The notes below the pieces were generated by a model. The model was not told the origin of the DNA, searched no databases, and saw only the letters and a program-made list of their open reading frames with translations. The position numbers and the translations under genes are program-made. A DNA stretch of 23,633 nt. Source: Ancylonema sp. (Eukaryota). Of this stretch, positions 2,933 through 22,984 are shown in pieces; position 1 is the first letter of the stretch; each line of letters begins with the position of its first letter. Location of the stretch: the NCBI GenBank assembly GCA_050230475.1, contig JBFLGF010000006.1:186001-209633 (forward strand), read 5' to 3'.

Positions 2933-3176
2933 ACATGTAGTGGACATGTTGTGGAGGAGGAGGAGAAAAAAATAAAATAAACAAAGCATAGGGTCATCGG
3001 GCATTTGACTTGTAGTAAAGAGAGGGGGAGGGGAATGAAGTAAATTAGTTCTTTAATCAAGGGAAATGCCGAGTTGTGGCGATAGTAATAATTGTAGAAT
3101 TAGCGTGGACCGGAGATGTGACTAATAATGTGCATGTGTGTCTATGTTGTGAGCCGATACAATATGCATGAGGATG

Positions 3177-3625
3177 TGAATCGACAATTAAGGTTGCACT
3201 TAGGCATGGGCGCGGAAGCGAGTACGATGAATTCGTACCGGTTTACTCTAGTACCGGACTAAGTTGCACTAGATTTGCATAGTTGAGTGTGCACCAATGG
3301 GGTCAATATGAATAGTCGCATTATTGTGTTCACGGGAAATGACGTTAGCGAGTAGACTTTAGTCAACCTACGCACCACCGGTTGGTTAAACCGATTATTT
3401 GTCCTTGGCTTGTAAGGCAAATTCAATATATACTCTACGGAGTTTTCATAACAAACAATTCATACCATCATCGCTTTTGTTTCCAGTGGGATTCTAGTTT
3501 GTTGGTGTCTTGCCATTTGTTACGGACAGTTTGGCTTTGTATGTAATTCACGAGAAGTCGGAGAGCCGGCGAATTTAAGACCTGTACGGCAGGCAAGGGA
3601 TTGGCCCACTATGGCTGATCCTTCA
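3177..3625 (+). repeat. Putative Copia 3' LTR (about 450 bp)
   Basis: Begins TGAA after a short purine-rich ATGAGGATG, ends TTCA exactly where phytochrome coding sequence resumes; TATATA at about 3427. Partner LTR is not in the window, so boundaries are inferred. Confidence 0.6.
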
Positions 3626-3626
3626 G

Positions 3627-5693
3627 GACGAGCTGAGTACTGTGGCCAATGAGATGGTCCGCCTGATCGAGACAGCTACGGCCTCGATCCTGACAGTGGA
3701 TGCCACGGGAACCATCAACGGATGGAACACAAAAGTGGCGAAACTCACAGGGCTAACCGCTGCAAGAGCCATGGGGCTCTCTCTAGTTAAGGACGTGGTG
3801 CACCCCAACTCGATGGAGACTGCAGAGAGGCTTGTTCACCTCGCCCTCCATAGTAAGAGGGGCTCTAGGAATAAGAGTAGGAGTGAGGCTGGTTGGTCGA
3901 TTTCGCCAAAAAAAATCAAGCTGCGTTTCAGGAGGGCTTCTGTTGGCAGGTGAGGAGGTGCAAAACGTCGAGCTCCAGCTGCGCAGGTGGGGCGGGTCAG
4001 GCCCTCAAACAGACTTCCCTGTCATTCTGGTGGTGAACACCTGTGCATCGCGAGACACGAGGGATGCTGTGGTAGGGGTCTGTTTCGTGGGTCAAGACGT
4101 GACCGAGCAGAAGACGGCCATGAAGCATTTCACGCGCCTCCAAGGGGACTACACCACCATCGTGCAGGCCCCGAATTCACTCATCCCCCCCATCTTTGGG
4201 GTGGACAAGTCGAGGTACTGCAGTGAGTGGAACCCCGTCATCGAGCGGTTAACCGGGGTGGGGAAGATTGATGTGGTGGGGAGGACGGTGGCCGGAGATA
4301 TATTTGGGAGAGGGGGACTGTGCCCTCTGAAGAGTGGTGACGGCATGACCAATCATTACTGTGCTCAATAACGCCATGGGAAGGTAGGAAATGGGCAGAG
4401 TGCCTTTCACTTTCATGGACACGAAGGTGAGTCGGCGTTGTGGGATGGTGTGGGTGGGTTGCACAGAGGTTAGGGGGGTGGGGGGAGTTATTCGGGAGAT
4501 GTTGCAAGGGTGGGGGTGTGGGGTACCTCTTTGATTGCGGGGCTGATGTGGAAGCTGTTCCCTGTTCCCTGTTGCTTTGTGCAGGGCAAGACAGTGGACG
4601 CCTTGATTAGCGCCAACAAGCAGGTGGATGGTGGGGGCGAGGTGATGGGAGTGTTTATCCTGCACACGGCCTCCCCGGAATCGTAACAGGCGCTGGCGGT
4701 CCAAAAAGCGTCGGGAACGGTGGTGTGGAGCAAGGCCAAGGAGGTGGCATACATCCGCCAGGAGGTGAAGAACCCGTTGAACGGGATCGAGTACGCCTAT
4801 AGTGCCATCCTTCGTACGCAGCCTCCTAGTGAGGAGCAGCGCCAGCTGGCGAACACCGGAGCCATGTGCGAACGGCAGCTGAGGAGGGTTGTGGAGGACG
4901 GGGATGTGGAAAGGATTGACAACAGGCACATGAAGGTGGAGGGGGCGGAGTTCACGGTGGGAGCGTTGGCAAACTCGGTGATCTCGCAGGGCTTTCTGAA
5001 GGCGTCTGAGAAGAGACTGCAAGTGCGCTATGACATCCACCCCCACCTCAACGCCTTGCGCTGCCTTGGGGACGTAATGAGGCTACAGCAGGTCATGGCT
5101 GACTTTCTGCTCAATGCCATAAACTTCACGCCACGTGGCGGGTGGGTGGAGATGACTGCGGTGACCGAGAAAGGGGGATGTTGCAAAGATAGAGTTCAGG
5201 TATGTGGGGTCTTTTGGGGAGGAGTGGGTGATTTTGCAACCAATGGAGGACGCTATATAGTGGGTGGTGATCGTGCGGGAAATCATGCAGGTCGTTTGCT
5301 TTGTGGTCTATTGCTTACTGTTTGTCTTACACGGGTTTGTAGCATGGACTCGATGGCTTAAGCCAGTGGTGCAGAAAAGAGGATAATGGGTACTCTACTC
5401 CGCTAAGTATGCTCTGTCTCGCATATCAAGTCTTTGCCTCCCCTCCTCCCCCTCCTCTTGGCAGAGTAACTCATGCCGGCAACGGCCTCCCAGAGGAACT
5501 GATTCAACAAATGTTTGATTGTGGAGACAACCCCATCAAGTCTCAAGAAGGGTTAGGCTTGTCCATGTGTCAGAAGATCGTTTGGTTGATGTCTGGTGAG
5601 GTGAAGTACATACGCGAGCAGGAGAGATGTTACTTTGAACTCATCATGGATCTACCATTGGCGATCCGGGACGATGCAGGAAGTGCTAATTAG
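3627..5693 (+). pseudogene. PHY: Phytochrome C-terminal half (PAS1, PAS2, histidine-kinase-related domain), pseudogene; exons 3627-3852, 3950-4426, 4585-5199, 5465-5693
   Basis: [132 protein letters not shown] introns 3853-3949, 4427-4584, 5200-5464. Lesions: frameshift near 4350, TAG 4385-4387, TAA 4684-4686, frameshift near 5175. Confidence 0.95.
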
Positions 5694-7330
5694 AGTTTAG
5701 GAGCGACTGATTGGTTAGGAATGATAGCTACGTGGTTGAGATGGCTTGAGGGGTTTGTATTTGAATCCTTGCTGAGAGGTGGGAGGGGAGATGTGTATAT
5801 GTTGAGAAAAAAACGTGTATGAATGATTATGTTTGGGTCTGGGGGAGGGTGACCAATCCATGGGAGAGGAATCTATACGTGGAGAAGTTTTAGATAAAAA
5901 GAGACATAGATTGGGTGTTTTCTGCCAAATAATGGTTGGGGTTCTTGAGTTTTGTGGAAGGGTTACTAGATGTTGATCTAGGAATTGTATAACTACATTT
6001 TCTAGTACAGATCTAGGGATATTCATTCTTTAAAAGTATTAATTCATGTATCTAATATATTCATGTCACGTATGACCAAGGAAAACGTTTTTCTCCATGT
6101 ATGGTGTCAAACTGAATCGCTCCTGGCTTGTCCATGAATGTGGGAAATGGATCCCAATTCCGGACCGATCCAAAATTAATGTTATATATCGCCAACAACA
6201 CAGGCGTATTTGACATATAGCTAGATTTTGTGAATGGACTCTGCGCTCGCATAACAAATTAGTATTTGAACGGCAAAGTGCCCGGATCGAAGATCGGAAT
6301 TGAAGAACATCTTGCGAATCTTGTTTTTTTTTAGAATAACTAGCATTGTGGGGGGCATGGTGGGAAGACATTCGATAGTATTGTACCATGCTAATTGTAC
6401 CAAAATGTATTGTACCATATTAATTGCGGCTTCACAAAACTATTTTCGAGAGTGTTTCTCCACAAAAACACTGGTTTCGCTTTCACCATTGCGCAGGTCG
6501 ATTTGAAATCGAACTCGCTTGGTCCCCTGACTGTTCTTCCACGGAAGCAAAACCAAACATGATGACTCTTCTCGATCCGAGCAACGGGTATATCTGGGAG
6601 GACCATTTTATATTCAATATCTACTTCGAGGTATTAAAGAGCCACGTATTATGGATTTTTTTTAACGATAAGTCGTCCATTTTGTATCTCCTCTTCATCT
6701 TTTGATATATGGGCATGCCTACTCAAATAACATATTGTGAAAGAGAAAGGAAAAAGTGGGCAAAAGAAAAAGGAGAGAAGAAAAAACAGACTAAAGTAAA
6801 AAGAAAGGGGGCAAAATAACCCAACAACTCTACGTCAATATTGAGTACAATGAATTTCTTCGTTCCCGTCTCCGCGTTTGCATTTTACGTGATGCCCTCC
6901 ACAAGCTCTCCTTTTGAAGAATTCATTTATGAGGGTTTGAGCCATCTTCTCTTCTAATTGGCATTTGGGTCATTCGTAGGCACCTTTCCCCCTTTCTTCC
7001 TCGTTCAAGTGGAGGCTTTCAAAAAAGGTCCACAATGAACCACCCTCCATTCTAAGTCGCCACGAGGTGAGATGTATTTTAAGTCGCCGCTTATGACAAT
7101 CATTTTACGATGTATGTGAGAGTGAGACCACTTTTTGTAGAATTAGATTTCTAGTTAATCAACCATAACGAAATATGAAGTGTTGGGTAAGATAGTGCGG
7201 TTATGCATTTTGCATAGAACATGTGGTATATTTGCGCGGTATATTATTGTGCATCGAAATTATCGGAAAAGGAGAGTGAGCGATTATCATTATTGATTGT
7301 CATGAATAAAAAATATTGAGTGCGTTCCAG

Positions 7331-8195
7331 GTTCCTCTATCAACGTTGCTGGCTGTACCGACGAATTCCTTTATGACAGCACTCAAAGATTTTCTTGCCG
7401 AAAAAATATCGACAGATGTCATCGTCAAAACTATTTGTGGCGAAGAGATTCATGCTCACAAGCTGGTTTTGGTGAGTTATTTTCTTTTTTGTGGATAACT
7501 CGCCTCCGTTATTCATGAAACGCTTTCAGGCACATAGGATGGCCTTTCGGGTCACTTTATTTCTCGTAATGTTTCAATACTCTTACTAAGAAATGAGGGG
7601 TGATAAATATGAGTATGAGAGTGCTACTGTAGGCCTGCTATTTTCTTGAGGAGGTAGATACTTTTTTTTTCAGTGTCAAGCCTCCCACGACAACGGTTGC
7701 GATAAGTTTAAGAGATATCGAATATACAAAGTTGGAGTCCTAAATGTTGTTTTACACTTGTTGCAGATGTTGATGTCCCCAGTGTTTCAAAAAATGTTTC
7801 AATCAGGCATGAAGGAGTGCTCTAGTCATTCCATATCAATCACCAACTTTCCCTCTCCCCCCGTGGTGGCATTTGTGCAATTCTTTCACTACTTAGACGT
7901 TGTACCTGATTTGTTAAAGGAGTACAGTGTTGAGCTCTGGGCACTCGCCGACAGATACCAAGTGAAGGGTCTCAAGCAACACATCATTGAACGCCGACAA
8001 CGGTTTGTGACTCCCGAAAACGTGGTGGACGTGCTTGATCGTGCTGAGAAGCACAAAGCCAAGGATGTCAAAACGTTTTGCGTCAACTACTTCGCAAAGA
8101 ATGCTAAAAGTATTGGCAAGAAGAACACCAAAAAACTTACATCTTTACCCTACAACATACTAGCTGAACTCTTGGACGCCGTTGTTGAGGATTAA
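7331..8195 (+). CDS. BTB/POZ domain protein (SPOP-like BTB plus BACK-like helices); exons about 7331-7471 and 7767-8195; start uncertain (ATG at 7373 or an upstream exon)
   Basis: TDVIVKTICGEEIHAHKLVL joined via phase-0 GTGAGT...TTGCAG intron 7472-7766 to MLMSPVFQKMFQSGMKE...LWALADRYQVKGLK...VTPENVVDVL...VKTFCVNYF; no stops in these exons. Confidence 0.85.
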
Positions 8196-9887
8196 AGTAG
8201 AGGTAGCCGAGTACTAACTTCTCTACGTACTGTTATATTGATTTTATATTGGTAAGGGAAAGAGTATGATAACACGTCACAAAGAGGACTAGTAAGTCCA
8301 TCATGATGTAGAATAACATGTAAAGCGAGAGGGGAAAACGTACAACTTGACAGTGCTACTTTTTGTCATATGATAATAATGCCAAAGATCCGAAAGCCAT
8401 CGTGTTGGTAAGTTTAGTAACAAACTTGTTTGCAACATTTGACATCTTTTTTCTCTCCACTTTAGTTCATAGTGGTGTAACGCACGACCAACATTGGACC
8501 ACTATACTTATCATGTAAATCGAATGTCGAGTTCAAATCGATAATAGTCACCTTTCGTGTTGGTTCAAACACTTTTAATTGTAATTGTTGTATTCCGCCT
8601 TTCCAACATTTTCCTATCCTCGTTAATGCAACTAGACTATTCTAGGCTTTATTTATTCTCCAAAAAGCATTTGTATGTTGACTCTTGCCTTCATAAGACA
8701 AGACAACCAATAAAATGGCATCTTATTCCCTCCAATCAATTATATCTCATTCTGTCCACAAGAAAACAATTTGAGATTTTTTCCACCAGCTTTCTCTCAC
8801 TGTATTGCGCAGTTAAAATAGCCTTGCCATTCATCCCTAAATATTTTGTATCTTTTACTTGGAAGTCAATAAAAACAAGCTCCATTCCTTCGACATCGTG
8901 GCTATGTTTCGCCATAAGACCCAGCATTGAACCAACAATTTGAAGCTTGAGATACGGTTATGCAAGTCCTTGACTCCACTTGCATGTTACCTCATGATCC
9001 ATGGGAAAAAGATGAGTTGTTGCGATGAATTTTCCACAACTTACTAGTTGTGCCTCTACTTCCAATAAAGCAACCTTATGCTTTCTTTAACTCTCATACT
9101 CATGCTCTTTGCCATACCACTACACCACCGAACCACGGTCGCACTTGAGAATTCGCCCCCCCCTTCCGAAATAATTTATAGTGGTTATAACTTTCTAAGA
9201 TCACATGCCCTCCCTCTCATATCGGCAAGGCACATGATCCTTCGTACATACGACAACAAAACGTGTTTTGTTGGTTTGTGTAGGTAGCCAAGATTGCTTC
9301 AAAATGTAGTAAAAGCCACATACCATTTTTTATCTTCAAAAAAAGAGCGGATGGGGGAGAGGGAGGGGTAAAATGTGGCTAAGAGGGTAAGGGAATCTTG
9401 TCGACCCCGATCTGTCCAGGACTCTTCCGGACCGAGTCACGATAATTACCAGCAAGGACATAGCAGGATCACTCCCGACCATGACTTCCGAGCATACTTG
9501 CAAAATGCCAAAAACCTTCCCGGATGCGAACTAAGATCCACATTTCGAAGGTTCGTCCTTGAAAGCCAAAAAAAATGCCCCAAAACCTTGGACCGACGGT
9601 GGTTGTTTTTTTGTTCCCTTCCCATTTGGGTATTGGAGTAGACAACTGCCCAACGTACGACTCTATATCTTCATCGATATTCAGATGCAATTTGGTGCTG
9701 AAAATTGCTTGACTACCCTCTTCAAATTTCCACCTCTAGTTGAATCTGATCGCTTTATAAAATACGGGATTCTTTTTGTTTTATTCAAAAGCAACAAATT
9801 CAGTAAGTATTTTTAGTAGTACCAAATGTCATTTGCCAAGTCTACCTAAAGACAATCTGATTGTAATTACTTACCCCTGATACCGCA

Positions 9888-9891
9888 GTCG
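9888..9891. other. Left target-site duplication GTCG (partner 22981-22984)
   Basis: ...CCGCA GTCG|TGACGTG at left and ...CATGACA|GTCG CTCTCC at right; the match extends to CAGTCG if the terminal CA is counted. Confidence 0.8.
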
Positions 9892-10093
9892 TGACGTGCT
9901 GTTTGGAATCGGCCGCCCGGAAATAGTGTTCTTCATACTTTGATTTCTCTCTAAACTGAAGTTCTCTCTTTTGATGTCTTCATGACTTCTTCTCTCAGTT
10001 CTGAATGGTGATCAGCTCATACACTCACAATCTTGTATCGATGAATGTTGGTACTATCTCAGAAAGTCACAATGTGGTATTGTGCTGCTCTCA
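9892..10093 (-). repeat. Repeat Y2 (about 200 bp), 3'-terminal copy
   Basis: Direct repeat of 11255-11459, about 90% identical; TGACG...CTCTCA on +. Confidence 0.95.
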
Positions 10094-10095
10094 CT

Positions 10096-11252
10096 AAGTA
10101 GTATTGCAGATTGAGTCTTTGCTGAGATATCAATATTATATCTATCACACGTCTCAACGGTGTGGTGAAATTCACTACTTAACGCCGAGGGCGAGCTAAC
10201 AGATGGTTTATAGTACAAAAGTCAATGAAAATACTATAAAGCAAACAAGATAGTCTAGTCTGGCGCAGACTATCAAGGTTAACAACCGTAAGAGTTGCTT
10301 TCGGTGCGAAAGCAAAGTATCGGCGTCGATAAAAGATGTTGGCTCAGAAAGAGCGTCAGCAGACAGATGTAAACAACAAATGCTGGCTCGGAGCAAGCGA
10401 CAGCAAACACACACACACAAAGGAAATTGCCGGTTCGGAGCGAACAAAGGCAAATCGACAGATGCTTTTCACACACATGCACGCTTGCTGGCTCAGAGAG
10501 AGCGTCAACGAATCGATGTAAGAAATTACAGTCGATAAACAAGCTGGCTCAGAAAGAGCGTCAGCAACAGATTCAGATGAATTAGGTAAAATAAACACAC
10601 ACACAGATTGCAAAGAATGATTTGCAAACTTACCGTCTGGCTGACGGATGTCAGGCGACGAGCACGTTGCGAAGTCGCATAAGCGAAGGGATGCAATATT
10701 CACAGAATTGCAAGGATTCAGATAACACAGAAGATTGTTGGAAAGGATTTCTTAACAGCGCAATCTGATAGCGGAAGCTGGCAGATCTGAAAGTACAAAT
10801 TTACTTTTATCACAAAGTTGTTGCGCGGTGCTAACCGGCAGAGTTAACTAGAGTTAAACTGTCAAAGACAGGCTGGCTTAGCGACAGTCGAAGGCGGGCT
10901 TCTAGAACATTACACTTACTCTCGGCGCTCCGATGAAAACGACGAGAGATATTCCTCTAGTTCTACGGCTGGATTTAATCGCCGGGATTATCGACAAGTC
11001 GAAAGAGACTTCTGATTTTAACAAAATCGACACGCAGCTATTTGTTGGAGACTTCTCGATTCTAGACTTCGGAAAATACGCCACGCGTTATTTTCGAGTC
11101 GTACGAATTTCGTACTTCACTATTTTTCTTGTAAAGTACTAGTTCTAGAAAATCGTTGTATCGAATACTCTCGTAATAGCATAGTATTAATTTATAGGGG
11201 TTTTTGATCAATCTAGAGGGGTTTCGCCTTAGCCATCTCTAGCGTCATGACA
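10096..11252 (-). repeat. Repeat X2 (about 1.15 kb)
   Basis: Direct repeat of 17678-17740 plus 21888-22980, over 90% identical. Confidence 0.95.
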
Positions 11253-11254
11253 GC

Positions 11255-11459
11255 TGACGTGCTGTTTGGAATCGGCGGCCCGGAAATAGTGTTTTTCATA
11301 CTTTGACTTCTTTATGAATTGAAGTTCTCTCTTTTGATGTCCTCATAACTTCTTCTTCTCTAAGTTCTGAATGTTGATCATCTCATATAGTCACAATCTT
11401 GTATCGATGAATGTTGGTAATATCTCATGAAGTCACATTGTGGTATTGTGTTGCTCTCA
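11255..11459 (-). repeat. Repeat Y1, PPT-proximal (U3-like) part of the intact 3' LTR
   Basis: Direct repeat of 9892-10093; immediately follows the PPT on the minus strand. Confidence 0.95.
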
Positions 11460-11470
11460 CTCCCCCCCCC
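11460..11470 (-). promoter_or_regulatory. Polypurine tract of the DNMT-Gypsy element
   Basis: GGGGGGGGGAG on minus, about 30 nt after the pol stop (11503) and directly before TGAGAG. Confidence 0.9.
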
Positions 11471-11523
11471 TAGTTGTGAAATGGTAGTGTAAGAATTGGG
11501 TATCAGGAGCAGCGTTCTCCTTG

Positions 11524-11658
11524 GTGGTCAGGACAGAACCATGCGCCGTCAGGTATTGTTTTGAGCCGGGGTGTGAGACAATAGATGTGATAGCCATCGT
11601 TGCAATCGTCACACAAAATGAGATGTTTCTCATCGTTACGTGAACCGCATTGTTTGCA
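11524..11658 (-). CDS. PHD finger at the integrase C-terminus
   Basis: CKQC-x11-CDDC-x4-H-IYC..IPDGAWFCPDH: PHD C4HC pattern with conserved W; last ligand is His. Confidence 0.92.
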
Positions 11659-11659
11659 T

Positions 11660-12750
11660 AATGTAGGATCCGAACTGTTGAACAAACTTCTGTCAATCTG
11701 GTCATCTTTGATGGAGAGGCTGTAGGGTGAAATGTTTTTCATATGTTCCCAGATGCGGCGTCCATCTTTACCCTGTAACTGCACATTTCCAGAGGGTCGG
11801 ATTTGTGTAATCCGAAGGATTTGTGGATGTGTTTTGATGTCAAGTGTGCCTTTGGTTTGGCGTTTCACATAAACATATTGATGTTTGAGGAGACGAGGGC
11901 GAGGTCGTGCCCATGCACTACTGTGTACCCGAAAGTATTGATGCTTGTCTTGTTATTGTGCAATGGCAAGGTTGCGCATTACGAGAGGCATGACTTCCTC
12001 AAAAAAATTATTGCGTTCCAGAATGAATTTTGGTAACTCTTTTAGTGCCTCAGGTAAGGGGTCATGTTCAGCTGCCTGTATTTGTGCCTGGAAGATAGGG
12101 TGTCTTCCATACACCAAATAGTATGGTGAATACCCGGTAGAGGCCTATTTTTTTATGCGATACCCCATGGCGACATAAGGTAGGTAAATGTCCCAATCCG
12201 CGCGATGTTCCTTTAGGAGGATTTTCCTTAAAGATAGTTTCATCGTTTGAACCATGCGTTCTGCTAACCCATCAGATTGTGGGTGTTCCCGGGCTGCAGT
12301 ACGATGTGTAACTCGATGTCCGACAAGTAAGTCGGTGAACGCCCCTTCAAATGCTGCGTCTTGGTCAGTGATGATTTCACGAGGGGCTCCAAGACGAGAA
12401 ACGACATGAATGGGGCATGTGGTGCTGATTTTGAAGATTTGTCGGGTAAGGCGAAGTCCACTCCCCAACGGTAGAAGAGTCCCCGACTTGGTAATGGTTG
12501 TAGTTGGGTACGTCCATCAGCAAAGTTTGTTTTTGCCCGAGAACATGCTGGACATTCTTTGATGACTTGAATGACATGATCACCCATCCCATGCCACCAC
12601 TAATCTTGTTGTAAAGCGTGGAGCACGCGTTTCCCCCCAAAATGACCGTATCGTGTGTGCATGGTATTGATCAGAGGAATTTGTTCCGATGGTGGTGGAA
12701 CGATTATCATGTGTCCAGAGGTAGGGATTTTGTAGACATATCTCCCCATC
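11660..12750 (-). pseudogene. Gypsy DDE integrase (H2C2 zinc finger, rve core), frameshifted with an internal deletion
   Basis: HTRYGHFG...CPAC; RWGVDFA fused directly to LPDKSSK (roughly 30 aa missing); GAPREIITDQDAAF; HPQSDGLAERMVQTMK; WDIYLPYVAMGYR; TGYSPYYLVYGRHP. Confidence 0.92.
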
Positions 12751-13019
12751 CATCTATATTTGAGAGCCCGTCGGTATGTACGGTTTCGTTGTTGTGGTGT
12801 CAAATCTGGTAGGTATGCATGAGTTTTGAGAAGTGTCATTGTGGCATTATCATCCCAAATGTTCACTTTGACATCCTCTGGTTGTTGTAGACCTTGGTGA
12901 AAACTCAGAAAGTATGATGGTGCACTAAGACCCGTGGGTGAAGTATGCATGTAGTAGCACGGTGTTTTCTTCCCTAATGTTTCAATCTCATGGTTGTCAG
13001 TAGTTGTCTCTGGTAACGG

Positions 13020-14440
13020 ACAACGACTGCACCCGTCGGCATTGGAGTTTGCAACACCGAGGCGATGTATCACTGCCAATTCATACTCCTAAAGTAAGAG
13101 TGCCCAACGCGCAAATTTGACGGTGAGTTTGGTGGTTGTCATGATCCATTTGAGGGGTGCATGATCGGTAATGAGGGTAAATGGTTTACCAAACAAAAAT
13201 TGACGAAAATGTTGCACCGCCCAAATTATAGCAAGACACTCCCCGCGAAAGTTGTTGTAGTTCCGTTCCGCATTGTTACAGCTGCGACCAGCAAATGCGA
13301 TTGCATATTCGGTACCATCATCATCTGTCTGACTCAAAACGGCACCTAAACCATGTGCACTCCAGTCGGTCGCTAACAAGTATGGTTTATTAGTATCCGG
13401 TCTGCGGAGTTCAGGCTCTGAACATAGTGCCTGCTTAAGTTCGATAAAGGTTGTCTCTTGAGTCTCGTCCCAATGCCATTTGACATCCCCTTTCAGAAGT
13501 CCGTTGAGTGGGGAAGCAATCGTGGAGAAGTGTGGAACGAACTTGCGGTAATATGAAAACAACCATAGAGCAGCACGAAGTTGGTGAATATCCTTAGGTG
13601 TCGGCATATCCTTAATGGCTCTGATTTTCTCATCTTGTGTTGCAATACCTGTCCCAGAGATCTTATGGCCTAAAAAATCCATTTCATCTGCAAAGAATAA
13701 GTACTTACCTGGATGACATTTCAACTTGAACTACCGAAGGCGATGAAAAACTTGTCGAAGGTGTTGAAGATGGTCCTCGAAAGTATTGCTTCAGTTGCTG
13801 ATGTCATCAATGTAGCATCGCGAGTTGCGAAGTCCTGCCAAAATTCGGTCCATGGTACGTTGGAAGAATGGTGGTGCATTCTTGAGTCCATATGGTACGA
13901 CATTCCATTCATAAAGTTGACGGTCAGCTCCCCAACATGCGGTTTTGTATTTGTCCGTTTCAGATATAGGGATTTGGTGGTATCCTTGTCGTAAATCCAA
14001 TTGGGTAAAAAAATCGCTTCTTTCATGGAAAGATGTCCTCAATTCTTGGAAGCTGATACTTGTCCTGTTGGGTTTGGTTGTTGATAGGACGATGATCACC
14101 ACATTGGCGAAAGTCCGTTGGTTGTCCATTCTCGTTCTTCTTTCGTACCACGACGGTTGCCGAGGCGTAATTGTTACTATCACTTTTGCGAATCATGCCT
14201 AGTTCGAGAAAATTTTGACAGTTATCTCGAACAAAACTCCATTCGGTGTCAGAAAGACGATGGGAGTTTTGAAAAATTGGTTAAGTTGTTTGCAAAGGAA
14301 TTTCCATAGGAGTATTGTTGGGTGGAAGTAACTCTTTCAGAGAAAATGCAAAGACATCGCGGTTTTCCTCCAGAAGATCAATAACTTGGAGTTTTTGTTC
14401 CTCCGTAAGATTATTGCCAATTTTCCATGTAATAGGTTTC
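13020..14440 (-). pseudogene. Gypsy reverse transcriptase and RNase H, frameshifted
   Basis: FTQLDLRQGYHQI, KYKTACW, YEWNVVPYGLKNAPPFFQRTM, YIDD at 13803-13814, FLGHKI, LATDWSAHGLGAVL, ECLAIIWAV, TDHAPL, NSNADGCSR. Confidence 0.95.
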
Positions 14441-14769
14441 ACCTCATTTTCAAGTGGTGAATCTGGGTTGGATGGAATCATGTTGTCATCGGTGACAGTT
14501 GTTGATTGGTAATCGGTTTCACTCAATAATGGTTGAGTGATAGGAATTGCATCTTGAGCAAGTTGGTGTTGCTCAGGTGAAGTGTGATGCTGGTGATTCC
14601 TATTGTTGTAAAATTCATTGGTCGCAGAATTGTAATGAAGGATGTGGTATAATGGATGAATAGAGTAGTTGCCCCCCCCCCTTTCCTTGGTTGGCAAGGT
14701 GGGGTATGTACCCTATGCACGAGGCTATAAGATGGGAGTGCATGTATAGCCATTAGAATGCCTCCCAAA

Positions 14770-15735
14770 AACATTTAACCATGTTGCGGTCCATTGTGCG
14801 TCCCAGCATTGCTCTTTCCGAGTATTCTCTGAAATGCCTGGTGCACATGTATCTCCATTGTCAAAACCCATGAGTCTCTCACGTTCCCAGACATTCGCTT
14901 CCTCCCAGTCATGTTTCTCCGTGTTGTAAAGCATTCCAGGGCTTGGTTGATTGTACCCTTGAAACTTAAATTGGTAGCTGCCTGGGTAGAAACAAGTGTC
15001 GGTAATGCACGACGTAGTGCGCCAGTTTTGTTAACTGGAGTGAACGGTGGTTCATCATCTTTAAGCACTTTGTTAGGTCGATGATGTGGTTCAATAATGG
15101 TTGACAAAGGTGGTAATTCCGGGGTGTTAGGAATAGCCAGTTCCGATACATTCGGTGATATCCAATTTGTCCAGATGCCTCGAACAAGGTGGGCTGTGCT
15201 ACCGAAACTGCATGCGTCGGCAATTGCTGGGAAGCCCAAAAAGGACTTGATGAGTGTAGTTGTATCTCGAATTTCACCAGATCTCCAAATGGATAAGTGT
15301 TTTCCAAAATAAATACTCGTGGGTATTTTTGGACTCTGTTTGATGAGATGGTTGATGGCTCGACTGAGGTCAAAGAAGTATGGAAATCGTCGATCATAGT
15401 AGCCTTTGCCTTGTCCGGCTTTGCTGACCATCTGACATTCCCACCCAGTGAAGATGAAGTCGATAGGTCCTCGTTGTAGGATCAGTTCATCCAAATCGTC
15501 GTTTGATATTTTGGAAACATCATGAGAAAGTCGAGTGTCGAAACCTTTAATTGCACTGGTTGACAATTGTCGTGGGTATCGAACTTGAAGTTTGGGTAAT
15601 GTTGCACGAGTGATGTCACGTGCATCTTGGTCAATGTCACTGTGGGTATATGTACCAATGTTGTTTCCAGCTTCAAGGTGCATGATAGCGCCACTGCAGC
15701 TCATGCCACCAAAAAGCTCCCAAATGTGTAGACCA
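14770..15735 (-). pseudogene. C5 cytosine DNA methyltransferase domain (DNMT3-like) inside pol, frameshifted
   Basis: Motif I LHIWELFGGMSCSG; II SDID; III HDVSKI; IV GPIDFIFTGWECQ (Cys codon 15435-15437); VI FILENT (15296-15304, adjacent frame); VIII ADACSFGSTAHLVRGIWTN; IX ERERLMGF..DT (ORF 14725-14934). Confidence 0.88.
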
Positions 15736-16319
15736 TCTTGCAGCGCCTTAGGTTGTAAGCGAGCTGTATAAGATGGGCCAATTGGTACACCATCGCGAAT
15801 CGGTATACCTTTCCATGCGTTCCATTGTGGTAATGGCTGGTCTTGTATTTTGTCGATGGCCTTGCGCAAATACTGTGCGCTCTTGATACGCAAGGTTGTA
15901 AGTCTGTTAACTGCATGGTGCTCATTTATTTGTGCCATTGTTCTGGCTACTGCATTAAGTTGTGGTCGATGCGCTTGACGAATGTCCGTATGTTTGGTTG
16001 TAGCAAGGTAAACCATGGTATTGGTTTCCCATTCTTGCATCTGAGGTTGGTACTCATTGTCGATGGGTCCATCTGGAAAATGTTGTGGTTCGTGGTATAC
16101 ACCTTCTTCCATGATACGAAACTCAAATTCTGTCAGAATGTCGGCTTCTTCTGTTGAATGTAACAAATCCTCGTGCGGAATTTGCATGAATGTGTTAGAA
16201 AAAGTGTAAGTAACACCTTCATCCATGTATTGACAATGCACCGATGCCGCGTGTGGCAAACTGTATTTGACTGGAATCGAGGCACGGTGTGTACCTTGTT
16301 TTTGCCAGTCGTCGCGGTA

Positions 16320-16660
16320 ATGAAAGTGTTGACTCCATGGATCTGTAATACCTCCTATTGGTCCCGGGAAAGTACTGCTCAACAAAACGTCGTATTTGTC
16401 GGAAGGTGTCAAATGAAGTTTGGCGTTAACCGAAGTTTGGTTTTTTCCATGTCCAATGGTGATGGTATATGCTTTCTTGGTGGTCCCCAAAGATTGTTGG
16501 TATTTGCCATCTGAAGTTACGTATTCTTCTCCAGGATCAAGGTCTGGTGGTGTAAGCCTGAGTTGTTTGGCAAATTTGGTACCAATGGTCACGTTCTCTG
16601 CACCTGAATCGAATATTGGTAGTGAAGGTGTTTCTCCACCAATCGTGAGTATTGATTGAC
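16320..16660 (-). pseudogene. Retropepsin-like aspartic protease of the DNMT-Gypsy element
   Basis: PIFDSGAENVTIG (DSG 16602-16610) in frame with the 605-aa ORF that continues into the DNMT; flap VTSDG and YDVLLS. Confidence 0.8.
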
Positions 16661-16849
16661 TGTTGTCAACAGTTGGTATATCAGTTGGTTGTCAATCTGG
16701 CGTTGCAAGGGATCACCGGTGGTCTGGTGTTTTGTGGTCCCATTACAGAGAGTGCCATTGGTGGTTGTGGCATCTCTGTGCTTGTCGAGGGTAATCATGT
16801 GGTGGTGGTATGTCACCCTGAGGTGAGTCAAGTAACAAATTCTCGTCGT

Positions 16850-17534
16850 CGTGGACAGTTGGTCATTGTATGTCCTGTTTGTCCACAGAAATAACATCGT
16901 AATTCTTTTTCAATGACATCGTATGGTTCTTCAAAATAGGTCTGTTTGGTGCCTGATGTGGTGCAGACTCGAGTGGTGTCGAGGTACATGAAGGTGAAAG
17001 GTGTGGGTTGGTATCAATGGAATACCCCAGGTTATGTTCGATCTTCGTGATTGTTGTAGTCGTTCGAAGATTTGTCATGAGTTTTTCCAGTACTCGTTCA
17101 AGTTGTTCATCAAAAATGTGAACAAAAATGGTCGACTCAGGTGCCATAACTGTGTAAGCTGGTGGATACACTTCTTCAGTCTTAGGCTGGGCGTATCGTG
17201 TGAAAGCCAATGTAGCTTTCCATACCTCCTCCGCTTGAAGCAACTGGATGGTGAGATGACGAGGGATGTGCTCTTGCCACTCCTGCTTCCTGTATGTTTG
17301 TAACATCTGGACGTGCGCCAATGTTTGTTCCCGCATATGAGGTGGTAATAGGTGTACCATTTGGTTTTGTTCCTCAATCTGACTCTGAATGAGTCCCAGT
17401 TTGAAAAATCGAAAATTTTGTCCCAGATCAGTTGCTATGGAAAGCAAATCTTTCTCTGCTGTTAATTTGTTCAACACATATTCAATTTTTGATGCTCTTT
17501 CGACCCAATGTCCATGATTATAAACGTCTATCAT
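16850..17534 (-). pseudogene. Gag-like ORF with CCHC zinc knuckle
   Basis: 223-aa ORF in gag position; CYFCGQTGHTMTNC (CX2CX4HX4C) at 16855-16896 in an adjacent frame. Confidence 0.7.
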
Positions 17535-17675
17535 TGAATTGTGATATGAAAAGTGTATATCTTCAATGACGTAGTAGTCAAGAAAGACAACAGATGTTCA
17601 GGAAAAAAAAAAATCTGGTTCCAATATTTGATACAAACCTTTAATTATCAAAATCAAGGTCTTCCGCGGTCGGAT

Positions 17676-17740
17676 TGAAGCAGTATTGCAGATTGAGTCT
17701 CTGCTGAGATATCAATATTATATCTATCATACGTCTCAGT
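17676..17740 (-). repeat. Repeat X1, U5-end fragment (split by nested insertion)
   Basis: TGAAGCAGTATTGCAGATTGAGTC... matches 10096-10158. Confidence 0.92.
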
Positions 17741-18172
17741 TGTTAGGAGTGGAATAGAATGGAACTCCTAGCAATCTATGTTGCAAGTGCACACACAAAG
17801 TAATGGCGAATTGAGCCGATAGGATGGAGGCTAATGAGCCGAGGATCAAATGGTCGGGTTGATATGATAAGGCACAACAGGGTGCACGTACATGAGTTGA
17901 TAGGAATGCTCCAAAGGCATTCCTATGGACTAGTTATAGTGAAAGTCGACATCCACAAGCTAATCAAGATGTGGGATAACTAGAACTCTCTATAAGAACA
18001 AACTGGAAAGCTAAGGGTCGGCACTCGATATAAGAACAAAGGGGCTAAGGACACACATATCACTATAAAGGGACAAAACTCGCTATAGGGAAAACTGCGC
18101 TAGTAGCGCTGCTTCTGTGGCTCTGGTGCTAAGTGTGCTAGGGAGCCCTAGTGACTGTAGCGAGGGTCCTAA
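17741..18172 (-). repeat. 3' LTR of nested element
   Basis: TGTTAGGAGTGG...GAGGGTCCTAA, direct repeat of 21466-21882; inner terminal bases and PPT lost. Confidence 0.92.
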
Positions 18173-19800
18173 GGAATAGCCAGACGGCCGCTGCGGTAGA
18201 GTAGGCCCTCACGGAGTGTGTAATTAGCCGATGACCTGCCTGAGGGTGGCCTCAGGTTTAATTCCTGAGCAAGTCGTTGTAGCAAGTCTGTCGCGATAGC
18301 CTAGAGAGCCGGGTCCGCCAGCTGGGCCTCCTTAATGGTAGGTAGGAGAGGATCTGAGATAGGTAGAAGAGCTGCATCTGGAAGGATAGGGTGGGGGGAT
18401 TGGGCATGTAGTCAGGTCTGCGGGAGAGGGCGTCCGGCTTGCCATTGCTGGACCCCTTCCTGTAGACGATAGAGAAATCGTAGGCCGCCGGCGTCTTGGC
18501 TCACCGTGCATGCCTCCTAGAGGTGGTTCGTGCAGCTTGAAAGTACTCGAGGTTCTTGTGGTCCGTGTAGATCATGATAGGGTGCGCCGCGCCTTCCAGG
18601 TAGACCCGCCACTGGCGGAAAGCAGCGACAATTGCGAGCAGCTCCTTGTCGTAGATAGGGTAGTTAAGCTCCGCAGCACAAAATTTCCTCGAGTAGTAAG
18701 CGACGGGGTGGAGCTCGCCTGTCGCGTCAGTCTGAGAGAGGACGCAGCCCAGGCCAAAGTCGGAGGCATCCGCTTCAATGGTGATAGGTAAGTCTGGCTG
18801 GAAGTGCTGCAGGATAGGGGCCGAGGTGAAGGCAGTCTTGAGGGACTGAAAAGCTGCCTGCGCCTCGGGGGTCCACTGGAACTTGGCCCCCTTCCTGGTC
18901 AGAGAGGTGAGGGGACAGGCTAGGGTAGAGTAACCATTGATAAACTTTCGGTAGAAGTTGGCAAAGCCTAGGAAAAACTGCACCTCCTTGACCGACTGGG
19001 GAATTGGCCAGTCAAGGAGGGAAGCCAACTTGGCCGGGTCCATGTCCACTCCGGCTGGCGAGATGATGTAGCCCAGAAAGGCGATGGTGTCCACGTGGAA
19101 CTCGCACTTCTCTAGTTTAGCGTAGAGCTTGTGCCTTGCGTAGGACTGCCATGACTGCACGGACGTGGGGAACGTGTTCCTCTTCGGTGTCTGAATAGAT
19201 TATCATGTCGTCTAGCATGCCCGCTCATCGAGGTAGTCCCTGAAGACGTCGGAGATAAAGGACTGGAAGGCTGCCGGGGCGTTGGTAGGACCGAAAGGAG
19301 AGACTACAGACTTGGTATTCGAAGTGCCCATAGCGACAGCGGAACGCTGTTTTGTACTCATCCCCCTCTTTGACCCGCAACTGATGGTACGCATTGCGCA
19401 GATCTATTTTGGTGAAGACCTTTGCGCGGTGAAGCCGATCCAACAGCTCAGATATGAGGGGGAGGGGGCATCGGTTCTTTACCGTGACCGCGTTAAGTGC
19501 TCTGTAGTCCACACAGAGCCTCAATTTGCCGTCCGGTTTCTTTATAAACATGACTTGGGCCCCCCCCGGGCTACTAGACGGCCTGATAAAGCCGTTTGCC
19601 AGATTGTCTTGGATGTAGGTCTTCAGAGTTGCGAGCTCAGGTTCGGAGACGGAGTAAATCGGACCCCAAGGGGGTTCCTTGCCAAGTAAGAGGGGGATTT
19701 GCAGGTCATAGGGTCCGTGGGAGGGGAGGGTATTTGCAGCTCCCTCAGAAAACACGTCTGCATAGTCGTGATATTGAAGGGGGAGCTTGGCTAACAAGGT
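18173..19800 (-). pseudogene. RT and RNase H of nested element, frameshifted, truncated just before integrase
   Basis: [53 protein letters not shown] at about 19207-19215, FLGFANFYRKFI, EADASDFGLGCVL, DKELLAIV, TDHKNL, NGKPDALSR; ends GLLYRSGRLAIP fused to the LTR. Confidence 0.94.
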
Positions 19801-19899
19801 AAGGTTGGGCTGGGGGGATACAGCGGCTAAAATTGCAGTTGTTGGTTTGGGATCGGGAGGGATGATGGGGCGGGAACTGGGTTGCAGGCACTAGGCAAC

Positions 19900-20230
19900 G
19901 CATTGGGAGCTGGAAAATGACAAGGTGCCTATCTGCCAGTCGATATGTGGGTTGTGTTTGTGAAGCCAGGGGAACCCGAGGACGACCTGGCAATGTGCCA
20001 GACGGGTGACATCCAAGGTAAGTGTTTCTGTATGGGTCCCTTGGGTTCGGATCTGGGCAGGGTAAAAACAAGTAATAGGACCGGCAGCGGGAGGGCTACC
20101 ATCGATGAGTTGGATTGGGATAGGGGTAGGGTGGGGCTGGGGTAAAAGGTTGTTATCTGCCAATAGTTGCGGATCCACAAAGTTGCCTGACGCGCCAGAG
20201 TCAATCAGCACTTGTATGGGGATGGGGTGG
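19900..20230 (-). pseudogene. Aspartic protease of nested element
   Basis: VLIDSGASGNFVD (DSG 20194-20202), VVLGFPWL..HNPHIDW. Confidence 0.92.
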
Positions 20231-20399
20231 AGTGGGTAACGCAGGACCTGGCAGGCCAGCAAGAGCTGGCGGGGTTGGGGAAAGGGGGAGGGTAGGGAAG
20301 GGGGACCCGCACAGACCCCTCCTAGGACTGTGTGGGAGGTTCGTTTTTTGGCTCGTCGGGTGCAGATCCAGGAAACGCACCGTGCGGGTCCGCCCCTTG

Positions 20400-21377
20400 T
20401 TTGGGCAGTATCGGAGGGTGTGTCCAGCGATACCGCAGTAGTGGCGGAGATTGCCGTCAACGCGGCGAGCCATCTCAGTTGGGTGAACCTTCAGAACTGG
20501 ACGGCGGGTTCTATCCAGTTCCATGGGGACCACCTGAAGGTGAGGGGGGATTGGCTGGGAGGACTGATCTGCAACTCTGGCCTGGGGGGGAAACGTAGGT
20601 GGAGCGGAAAGGTCGTTTGTCCAAACGAGCAGCCAGGGCGTTCTCGATGTTCTTCACGAAGGTAACATACTCGGAGAAGGTGTCAGGGGGTAACTGAACC
20701 TTCAAGATCTCCTGCCTCAGCTCGGGCTTCAGTTTGTCAAAGTAAGTGAAAATCATAGGGTGACCTCCCCACCCCTGAAACCCCCTAACTAAGGCTCGGA
20801 ACCTGGCAGTAAAGTCCTGAACTCCCCCTGTGTCTGTTTGAGTTCACGCAGCTGGCGTTATGTGGTCAGGTTGGAGGGGATGTCGCCAAAAGCCTCACTC
20901 AGACCCTTCAGGAGGGCGTTCACATCATAGCCCGCGGGAAGGTTGTTGTCGGAGTCGGTTGCTGAGTGAACCACTCTCTAGCAGCACCAGTTGGGAAAGA
21001 AGAAAAGTAGAGGACTGTATGATCAGGCTCAGAGAATCTGATAGAAGCCACCCGGATCTAGTTGCGCACTAGTCGTAGAAAGGTAGCCAGACTTGCAGAA
21101 TCTCCTGAATATTTTTGTAATTCAGGAAGGACCATTTCTGAGGGAGTTGGCTGGTAGGCTGGTGGAAAAACAGGGATAGGCTGAGGGAAAGAAGGGGGTG
21201 GGGCTGAGATAGGAGATGGGGTGCTGAGGTGCGCCTCCACCACCTTTTTTTTTTCATGAAGCTCATTGGAGCGAATAAGGTCGTGATTCTTTCATATGTT
21301 TCTGCTTGCCGTTCCATATTCTCGCTCATTTGAAAACTCATGGCTTTCAAAGTATCCACAATCTGTTGCAACTCCAT
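20400..21377 (-). pseudogene. Gag of nested element, frameshifted
   Basis: LPELQKYSGDSASLATFL, YFDKLKPELRQEI, VPMELD, degenerate knuckle RHYCGIAGHTLRYC (about 20405-20446). Confidence 0.85.
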
Positions 21378-21452
21378 GAGGAAAAGAAAAAATGGAAACT
21401 CAGAAAAAAAGTGAGGTTTTCGCCTTAAAAGAAGTTAAAAAACCTCAATTGT

Positions 21453-21463
21453 ATTCCTATCAA
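21453..21463 (-). promoter_or_regulatory. Self-priming-type primer binding site of nested element
   Basis: Minus-strand TTGATAGGAAT 2 nt after the 5' LTR end; complementary to an 11-mer within the LTR (perfect at 17897-17907, one mismatch at 21622-21632); no TGG start. Confidence 0.8.
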
Positions 21464-21465
21464 AG

Positions 21466-21882
21466 TGTTAGGAGTGGACTTCGCAATCTATGTTGCAAGT
21501 GTTAGGACCCTCGCTACACACAAAGCACTGGCGAATTGAGCCGATAGGATGGAGGCTAATGAGCCGATGATCAAATGGTCGGGTTGATATGATAAGGCAT
21601 AACAAGGTGCAAGTACATGAGTTGAGAGGAATGCTCCAAAGGCATTCCTATGGACTAGTTATAGTGAAAGTTGGCATCCACAAGCTAATCAAGATGTGGG
21701 ATAACTAGAACTCTCTATAAGAACATGGAAAGCTAAGGGTCGGCAGATATAAGGACAAAGGGGCTAAGGACACACATATCACTATACAAAACTCGAACTC
21801 GCGAACTGCGCTAGTAGCGCTCTAGTGCTAAGTGTGGGGAGCCTTGCTAGGGAGCCCTAGTGACTGTAGCGAGGGTCCTAAC
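21466..21882 (-). repeat. 5' LTR of nested element
   Basis: TGTTAGGAGTGG...GAGGGTCCTAAC, direct repeat of 17741-18172 with several indels. Confidence 0.92.
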
Positions 21883-21887
21883 TCAGC

Positions 21888-22980
21888 GGTCTGGTGAAAT
21901 TCACTACTTAACGCTGAGGGCGAGCTAACAGATGGGTTATAGTACAAAAGTTTGTGAAAATACTAAAAAGCAAACAAGATAGTCTGGTGCAGACTATCCA
22001 GGTTAACAACCGTAAGGGTTACTTTCGGTGCGAAAGCAAAGTATCGACGGCGCGTCGATAAAAGATGTTGGCTCAAAAAGAGCGTCAGCAGACTGATGTA
22101 AACAACAAATGTTGGCTCGGAGCGAGCGACAGCAAACACACACACACAAATGAAATTGCCGGTTCGGAGCGAACACAGGCAAATCGACAAATGCTTTACA
22201 CACACACGCACGCTTGCTAGCTCAGAGAGAGCGTCAGCGAATCGATGTAAGAAATTAGAGCCGATAAACAAGCTGGCTCAGAAAGAGCGTGAGCAACAAA
22301 TTCAGATGAATTAGGTCAAATAAACACACACACAGATTGCAAAGAATGATTTGCAAACTTACCGTCTGGATGACGGATGTCAGGCTGAGACGAAAGACAA
22401 GCACGTTGCGAAGTCGCGTAAGCGAAGGGGTGCAATATTTAGAGAATTGCAAGAATTCAGATAACACAGAAGATTGTTGGAAGGGATTTCTTAACAGCAC
22501 AATCTGATAGCGGAAGCTGGCAGATCTAAAAGTACAATTTTACTTTTATCACAAAGTTGTTGCGCGGTGCTAACCGGCAGAGTTAACTAGAGTTAGACAG
22601 TCAAAGATAGCGACAGTCGAAGGCGGGCTTCTAGAACATTACACTTACTCTCGGCGCTCCGATGAAAACGACGAGAGATATTCCTCTAGTTCTACGGCTG
22701 GATTTAATCGCCGGGATTATCGACAAGTCGAAAGAGACTTCTGATTTTAACAAAATCGACACGCAGCTATTTGTTGAAGACTATTATTTATAGACTTCGG
22801 AAAATACGCCACGCGTTATTTTCGAGTCGTACAAATTTCGTACTTCACTATTTTTCTTGTAAAGTACTAGTTCTAGAGAATCGTTGTATCAAATACTCTC
22901 GTAATAGCATAGTATTAATTTATAGGGGTTCTTGATTAATCTAGAGGGGTTTCGCTTTAGCAATCTCTAGCGTCATGACA
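21888..22980 (-). repeat. Repeat X1, main part (5' terminus of the DNMT-Gypsy element)
   Basis: Matches 10159-11252; ends CGTCATGACA and is followed by GTCG and unrelated DNA rather than by Y. Confidence 0.95.
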
Positions 22981-22984
22981 GTCG
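22981..22984. other. Right target-site duplication GTCG
   Basis: Identical to 9888-9891. Confidence 0.8.

Follow-up and report, generated by a model that had tools for sequence, protein, structure and literature searches.

The stretch of DNA analysed here (the window: 23,633 nucleotides of Ancylonema sp., assembly GCA_050230475.1, contig JBFLGF010000006.1, positions 186,001 to 209,633) carries a broken copy of a Ty3/Gypsy retrotransposon whose repeats do not stand in the order of a canonical long terminal repeat (LTR) element. Its coding strand is the minus strand, and the two parts of its repeat are called A and B (X and Y in a first-pass annotation of the same DNA). Self-comparison and exact motif positions gave the minus-strand order flank, CGAC, A1, internal region, polypurine tract (PPT), B1, GC, A2, AG, B2, CGAC, flank. 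With the coding content filled in, this reads A1, primer-binding site (PBS), gag, protease (PR), DNMT, reverse transcriptase (RT), RNase H (RH), DDE integrase, PHD finger, PPT, B1, GC, A2, B2. The layout had been reported in the first-pass annotation as X-internal-Y-X-Y, with TG...CA outer ends and a duplicated GTCG, and the coordinates given there hold. The parts of the element are as follows.

9888..9891, no strand: target-site duplication GTCG, 4 bp, left copy (sequence)
9892..10093, minus: B2, the outer repeat of the 205 nt next to the PPT; the element has its 3' end in the CA at 9893-9892
10094..10095, minus: AG at the A2/B2 joint, present also at B1 (11461-11460) between the G-run and TG
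10096..11252, minus: A2, made up of the promoter part, R and the greater part of U5; it stops about 40 nt before the PBS-adjacent end seen at A1
11245..11262, no strand: internal att palindrome, sense CACGT-CA GC TG-TCATG; the GC at 11253-11254 is missing from the integrated ends
11255..11459, minus: B1, the inner copy of B, immediately downstream of the PPT
11460..11471, minus: polypurine tract, nine G and AG before TG
11518..12866, minus: integrase (H2C2; D-D-E core interrupted by a frameshift; stops present) with a C-terminal PHD finger (Pfam, tblastn)
13005..14427, minus: reverse transcriptase and RNase H, with stops and a frameshift (Pfam, tblastn)
14955..15935, minus: C5 cytosine methyltransferase-like domain, with the protease on one side and RT on the other (Pfam, tblastn)
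16400..17597, minus: broken remains of gag (with a zinc knuckle) and of the aspartic protease (weak Pfam scores)
17625..17636, minus: predicted self-priming PBS, exact complement of 22884-22895
17637..17738, minus: 3' end of A1; 17676-17738 is common to A2, and 17637-17675 is inferred U5 absent from A2
21886..22980, minus: 5' part of A1; the element has its 5' end in the TG at 22980-22979, TATAAAT lies at 22924-22918, and the predicted transcript start and self-primer at 22895-22884
22981..22984, no strand: target-site duplication GTCG, 4 bp, right copy (sequence)

The part of A1 that is shared with A2 spans 17676-22980 and is split by a nested Gypsy element at about 17740-21881. The right end of the retrotransposon is the left half of the internal palindrome up to CA, the left end is its right half from TG, and the GC between them is gone. 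CAGCTG occurs only once in the 1364-nt unit of B and A. Both repeat pairs are far beyond chance in self-BLAST (E values of 0 and 2e-74); A2 differs from A1 at 54 of 1139 sites (4.7%) and B2 from B1 at 19 of 202 (9.4%). Folded as single-stranded DNA of 40 nt, the att site gave nothing beyond shuffled sequence in any of four sequences (z -1.5 to +0.2), and thus no role is claimed for a hairpin.

Protein domains were sought with Pfam in stop-to-stop open reading frames and in all 12 frames over 9892-22984, with a threshold of E ≤ 0.1 for tyrosine recombinases. The domains detected in the element are a zinc knuckle, an aspartic protease, a weakly scoring C5 methyltransferase, RT, RH, H2C2 and PHD; all lie on the minus strand, and stops and frameshifts disrupt them. 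The methyltransferase domain scores below the Pfam cut-off (E 0.003); tblastn with relatives finds it at E values from 2e-21 to 7e-23, and it matches the DNMT of the related locus L009 described below. The H2C2 domain of the integrase was found with an E value of 3e-12, and tblastn with relatives that bear the rve domain aligned the D, D and E positions across the frameshift. The first-pass annotation had named an rve integrase. The DDE integrase stands, while the Pfam rve model itself gave no score on the core, because the frameshift splits it. No tyrosine recombinase was detected in the 12 frames, in agreement with what had been noted from the letters alone.

The gag-PR-RT-RH-integrase order, the DDE integrase with its HHCC domain, the PBS, the PPT, the TG...CA ends and the 4-bp duplication are all those of a Ty3/Gypsy element. 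What departs from this class is the site of the ends: instead of whole LTRs whose tips are set by PPT and PBS, the ends used for integration sit 205 nt inside the PPT-defined repeat. The window element is thus Gypsy by its enzymes, but it is not a canonical LTR element. Neither the window element nor L009 has a match to a chromodomain; a PHD finger is present instead, which places them outside the chromoviruses.

A PBS complementary to the 5' end of the transcript, as in self-priming of the Tf1 type, was found in the window and in L009. The pair lies at TATA+29, where the transcript start is predicted, and matches at 12 of 12 nt in the window and at 13 of 13 in L009; none of 3000 shuffles did so in either case. 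Self-priming has been described for the Gypsy elements Tf1, Tj1 and Tcn1 (PMC4600332, PMC6317226). As far as the available sections of these papers go, their PBS is likewise complementary to the transcript 5' end (predicted in the window), but they have conventional LTR ends and a chromodomain where the window element has PHD. With these priming sites, the linear cDNA would be of the ordinary kind, B-A-int-B-A (int, internal region), and its tips differ from the genomic ends. The sites also change the view of the repeat itself. In the first-pass annotation 10096-11459 was taken for an intact LTR with a tip at TGAAG, but the TG of this end is missing, and no primer match is present in the 36 nt directly after TGAAG, the actual match being 40 nt further in. 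The position of the PBS at 17625-17636 implies a 5' repeat that is longer than A2 by about 40 nt at this end. The TGAAG tip and the "intact LTR" are thus probably artefacts of a truncated A2/B2 joint, and TGAAG is most likely just the place at which A2 breaks off.

Public contigs were aligned to two stretches of the window, 11120-11540 and 8800-11254. Two of the sequencing runs, labelled X1 and X2 (these labels have no relation to the repeats), represent one sample, possibly the source sample. Loose ends exactly at 11252, the CA of the internal site, were found in at least 55 contigs of run X1 (3269 contigs aligned, 296 partly; median 198 letters) and in at least 43 contigs of run X2 (1175 aligned, 199 partly; median 255 letters). 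The loose ends agree with each other at only 0.36, so that the flanks are unrelated. Among the 12 rows listed, no cluster of loose ends was seen at the PPT-defined tip. Ends at the internal palindrome are a property of the family and not of a single copy. The first-pass annotation had left the choice between a family-wide route and a one-off event; many copies that end at ATGACA with different flanks, and the same site and layout in distant relatives, settle it in favour of the former.

Contigs on 8800-11254 also bear on the internal site, where B and A meet. All five variants of it listed there retain the six-base spacing, and among the joints listed are deletions in two single-copy contigs, which begin at the B tip, remove part of A and vary on the A side. 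At the left junction, a contig of single-copy depth, which may come from the source sample, begins in the left flank and ends at 9920; it thus crosses the junction by 29 letters, short of the 31 set as the threshold for bridging. Runs X3 and X4 contain the repeat and no flank. No RNA data set was listed among those that contain the sequence. Summed contig depth is higher for A than for B and lowest inside the element; it does not give a copy number and was not used. The att site at 11251-11256 contains CAG/CTG, a CHG methylation context, and the contig variants listed at this place are mostly C-to-T or G-to-A. A pattern scan of metagenomes returned two matches, both of them chance 20-mers with no further likeness, which were rejected as relatives.

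Protein searches revealed numerous Gypsy polyproteins that contain PHD and form a large group; a methyltransferase is present in many of them, and the named members are from chlorophyte algae. An alignment of 30 such polyproteins was used to scan genome contigs and yielded eight loci (L003-L010). These are evidently eukaryotic retrotransposon contigs within six bacterial and archaeal genome bins, in which they would be contamination. The six genomes contained no sites beyond the eight loci, and no relative was found in the viral contigs scanned. All five loci that extend past pol (four families) have a G-run followed, after 54-113 nt, by ACG(T)GA-CA GC TG; the other three end too early. In L003 and L004 the site is a perfect palindrome of 16-20 bp. 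A shuffle test of the G-run and palindrome used a pattern that had been fitted after the loci were seen and was therefore unfair. A fairer test is a 9-mer taken from the window alone: it follows the PPT in L003, L004, L009 and L010, and L008 ends after its first six letters. L008 has one additional match to the 9-mer elsewhere.

The layout recurs as well. L010 reads PPT-B1-GC-A2-B2, with B1 and B2 identical at 106 of 106 positions and 21 nt of other sequence after the terminal CA. L009 is 87% like L010; its frames for gag-PR-DNMT and for RT-RH-integrase-PHD are open, with the domains in the order of the window element. Here rve scores above the cut-off, and no tyrosine recombinase was found in the open reading frames and six frames scanned. 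A single stop (3489-3491), after the protease, separates the gag-PR-DNMT frame of L009 from the in-frame RT-RH-integrase-PHD frame; read-through or separate expression are both possible. The first seven bases of the predicted self-priming PBS of L009 (7414-7427) are also those directly after its PPT (6947-6953), and the A2/B2 joint of L010 falls there. This overlap hints at, and could guide, an end-to-end jump of the kind considered below; no clear counterpart is apparent in the window sequence.

In a tree of RT and RH with 38 rows, L003, L005, L006, L008 and the named chlorophyte proteins form a clade with 100/100 support. The window element and L009 lie outside it, and the branch of the window element is long and its placement unsettled. 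The methyltransferase is located before RT in the window element (14955-15935) and in L009 (2235-3260), between RH and integrase in the chlorophyte group (P0001, L008), and is absent from L003 and L006; the domain has thus been moved or gained more than once within one clade. The att site is common to members without the domain, with it after RH and with it before RT.

Similar arrangements can be recognized in published material. In a Chlamydomonas repeat library (supplement of Craig et al., PMC9940879; inspected by eye in parts 282 and 296 and at header places 9-128 of 158), 16 of the 26 Gypsy internal entries with a visible 3' end finish in CA-GC, including that of the active Gypsy-7a, and at least 14 of these 16 repeat the last bases of their own LTR entry. 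Two further entries start with GC-TG after an LTR ending in CA, and eight look conventional. Counted by numbered family in the same parts, 12 of 24 have the site, 8 are conventional and 4 undecided. As in the window element, the internal part of the families with the site ends in PPT-B-GC before TG, and the right repeat ends in B. Gypsy-18 has the layout A-int-PPT-B-GC-A-B and the same att site as L004, and B is about 50 nt long in Gypsy-18, -3 and -6. According to its legend, Gypsy-7a_cRei has a left LTR without the last 8 bp found in the right LTR; Gypsy-7a has 86 recent insertions in one laboratory Chlamydomonas strain, and the paper, in the parts available, offers no mechanism. Gypsy-7a differs from the window element in the length of B (8 bp versus 205), in its TGG-type PBS and in the position of PHD before the integrase, the comparison being one of features and not of trees.

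A second legend (Fig. 4c of de Mendoza et al. 2018, PMC5890265) describes KnitGypsy-Dnmt3 of Klebsormidium nitens as having a DIRS-like repeat structure and Gypsy domains. It resembles the window element in its Gypsy domains, in a DNMT within pol and in repeats of the order A-coding-B-A-B. The comparison is by description, and the text available mentions no att site, duplication, priming mode or mechanism. No sequence of K. nitens was present among the protein search matches for relatives or in the supplements of PMC5890265 that were searched. The route had been called possibly undescribed in the first-pass annotation. For the layout this is no longer so, as it is already in print, in passing, in these two legends (2018, 2022); for the mechanism, on which the legends are silent, it would still hold. 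In full-text literature neither an internal att site in these Gypsy elements nor a mechanism for them was found described, with theses, Repbase reports and most subscription journals, which may bear on the question, outside its coverage. We found no account in print of the internal site as a conserved feature, of its occurrence in about half of the Chlamydomonas Gypsy entries seen, of the self-priming or of the mechanism.

We consider it likely that the family to which this broken copy belongs integrates by joining the ends of its cDNA, after which the DDE integrase cuts again at the CA-GC-TG palindrome. Transcription would start from the TATA box of A1, the first 12 nt of the transcript would self-prime at the PBS, and the PPT would prime the plus strand to give the linear cDNA B-A-int-B-A; the signals for this are seen in the sequence, and we infer their use. 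The right end of the cDNA would then be joined to the left end, with the two bases left by the PPT kept; here the joint is visible, and the way it is made is our proposal. By analogy with foamy virus, the integrase would act on the palindrome beside this joint and nick each of its strands after CA, leaving CA-3' ends with 5'-GC overhangs, which are equivalent to processed ends. Strand transfer would finally produce the 4-bp duplication and the loss of GC, an outcome that can be read in the window. The product, A-int-B-GC-A-B, would be able to begin the next round, since promoter, PBS, PPT and 3' R are all retained.

Judging by intasomes in general, a repeat part of 8 bp is too short to be bound plausibly as a separate end. 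As B has this length in the active Gypsy-7a, joining should precede cutting. Who makes the joint can only be suggested tentatively: we lean towards an end-to-end jump of the reverse transcriptase, which, if coupled to cutting, would explain the bias to A-int-B-A-B, and rank this above host end joining, a less probable maker with which the ragged joint of the window copy would fit.

Part of this scheme has a biochemical parallel. The integrase of prototype foamy virus cuts the LTR-LTR palindrome CA-AT-TG after CA on both strands and leaves 5' AT, and two bases are lost on integration (Delelis et al. 2005, PMC1180852); a similar junction cleavage has been argued for HIV-1 (Thierry et al. 2015, PMC4372172). 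According to the sections available, a staggered cut after CA in CA-NN-TG, processed ends and the loss of two bases are shared with our proposal. In foamy virus, however, the palindrome is the joint of two cDNA tips, the LTRs of the provirus are normal, and the route is accessory and debated, whereas the palindrome of the window element is encoded inside U3 and cutting there would be obligatory. The circle route suggested by the first-pass annotation is still conjectural, and the activity of the foamy-virus integrase on CA-AT-TG gives it a biochemical precedent. The window element has the enzymes of Gypsy and looks like PAT or Ngaro without being one; by this analogy it would work like an obligatory form of foamy-virus junction cleavage.

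Several observations weigh against joining followed by cutting. Both steps are deduced from integrated sequences, and no cDNA, circle or cleavage was observed. A closed 2-LTR circle with two equal sites should yield A-B-A-int-B as often as A-int-B-A-B. The few elements with a readable layout are all A-int-B-A-B; copies of the other order, which had been predicted as X-Y-X-int-Y, did not turn up in any element examined. The joint is ragged in the window copy (about 40 nt lost) and apparently fixed in Gypsy-7a, whose comparison with the window element is one of layout. B2 and B1 have diverged twice as far as A2 and A1 (Fisher p=0.011), although both pairs would be identical at insertion. In the contig alignments, conventional ends at CTCTCA are possible beyond the loose-end rows listed (201 and 905 more rows). 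The outer B tip in other copies is thinly supported: among the matches listed, one contig of depth 3 starts at 11255 with 810 other letters ahead of it, and one joint, with a 24-letter side, falls on 9892. Finally, no self-priming pair was found in L003 and L004.

The strongest competitor, which we nevertheless regard as unlikely, is a templated route like that of PAT and Ngaro. The transcript would run through B2, the A2/B2 joint would be inherited, and template jumps would give a circle or unit-length DNA that the integrase opens between B and A. The layout is identical to that of tyrosine-recombinase retrotransposons with split direct repeats (PAT, Ngaro, VIPER), which, as the sources available describe them, have A1, B1, A2 and B2 in the same order. 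These elements encode a tyrosine recombinase, in contrast to the DDE integrase, PPT, PBS, TG...CA ends and 4-bp duplication of the window element. The greater divergence of B fits copies of B that are inherited separately, and the joint is defined in the library consensus entries. However, with a PBS after A1 and a PPT before B1, we infer that standard priming never copies B2. The identity of B1 and B2 in L010 also speaks against a templated joint, as do the deletions from the B tip in at least two single-copy contigs, with their variable A side; the window copy has lost about 40 nt at this very place.

It is more improbable still that no joining precedes integration. The integrase would then cut linear cDNA at the 5' palindrome and insert both pieces, and host repair would connect the A end to the start of B. 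This yields the same product, including the ragged joint and the two retained PPT bases, but it would break the chromosome at every insertion, and a B of just 6-8 bp, as in several Chlamydomonas families, is not long enough to be bound as a viral end. A one-off event or assembly artefact, in which an ordinary LTR element of the form (Y+X) inserted into itself, recombined or was put together wrongly in the assembly, is close to refuted: none of the contig records compared spans the whole arrangement, but dozens of contigs stop at one and the same CA inside the repeat, distant relatives and a curated library show both the site and the layout again, and the outer ends carry a 4-bp duplication.

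Joining followed by cutting at the internal site has consequences beyond this copy. On balance we think that about half of the Chlamydomonas Gypsy families seen, together with relatives reaching into the streptophytes, have abandoned integration at the tips for obligatory end joining and opening of CA-GC-TG in U3 by a DDE integrase. If true, this would be a natural retroelement lineage in which joined, circle-like cDNA is the real precursor of integration. A DDE integrase would also be a way to arrive at the split-repeat layout, which has been regarded as the mark of tyrosine-recombinase elements. Split repeats no longer prove the presence of a tyrosine recombinase. The textbook view, as also given in the available sections of two papers, is that integration takes place at the tips of linear cDNA, with 2-LTR circles as dead ends and cleavage of the junction by integrase shown only in vitro or under drug reversal (PMC1180852, PMC4372172). 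If the ends always come from a cut in the internal palindrome, the question of 2-LTR circles would become one of a natural, obligatory pathway. Due to the active Gypsy-7a in laboratory Chlamydomonas, the route can be tested now. Programs whose search relies on a pair of matching LTRs with TG...CA tips will overlook such elements or date them wrongly.

The element that interrupts A1 is a different Gypsy, which has no part in the mechanism:

17740..21881, minus: nested Gypsy, LTRs of about 430 bp, CTCAG on both sides; PR-RT-RH

Its LTRs are conventional and differ at 19 of 390 sites (4.9%). No integrase was matched in the Pfam scan of its frames, and its 3' end is thus probably deleted. Taken together, the divergences of A2/A1, B2/B1 and the nested LTRs indicate that the window copy is old and that the nested Gypsy was inserted soon afterwards.

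The remainder of the window contains three further features on the plus strand, which mark the host as a plant in the broad sense. A decayed Ty1/Copia element occupies 1-2900, with matches to rve, SH3 and RVT_2 and a purine-rich tract near 3020-3030. It is followed at about 3600-5690 by the C-terminal half of a phytochrome-like gene (PAS, HisKA) with short introns and in-frame stops, whose 5' part has apparently been lost behind the Copia element. A BTB/BACK gene (BPM/SPOP-like) lies at about 7330-8195, 1.7 kb from the insertion.

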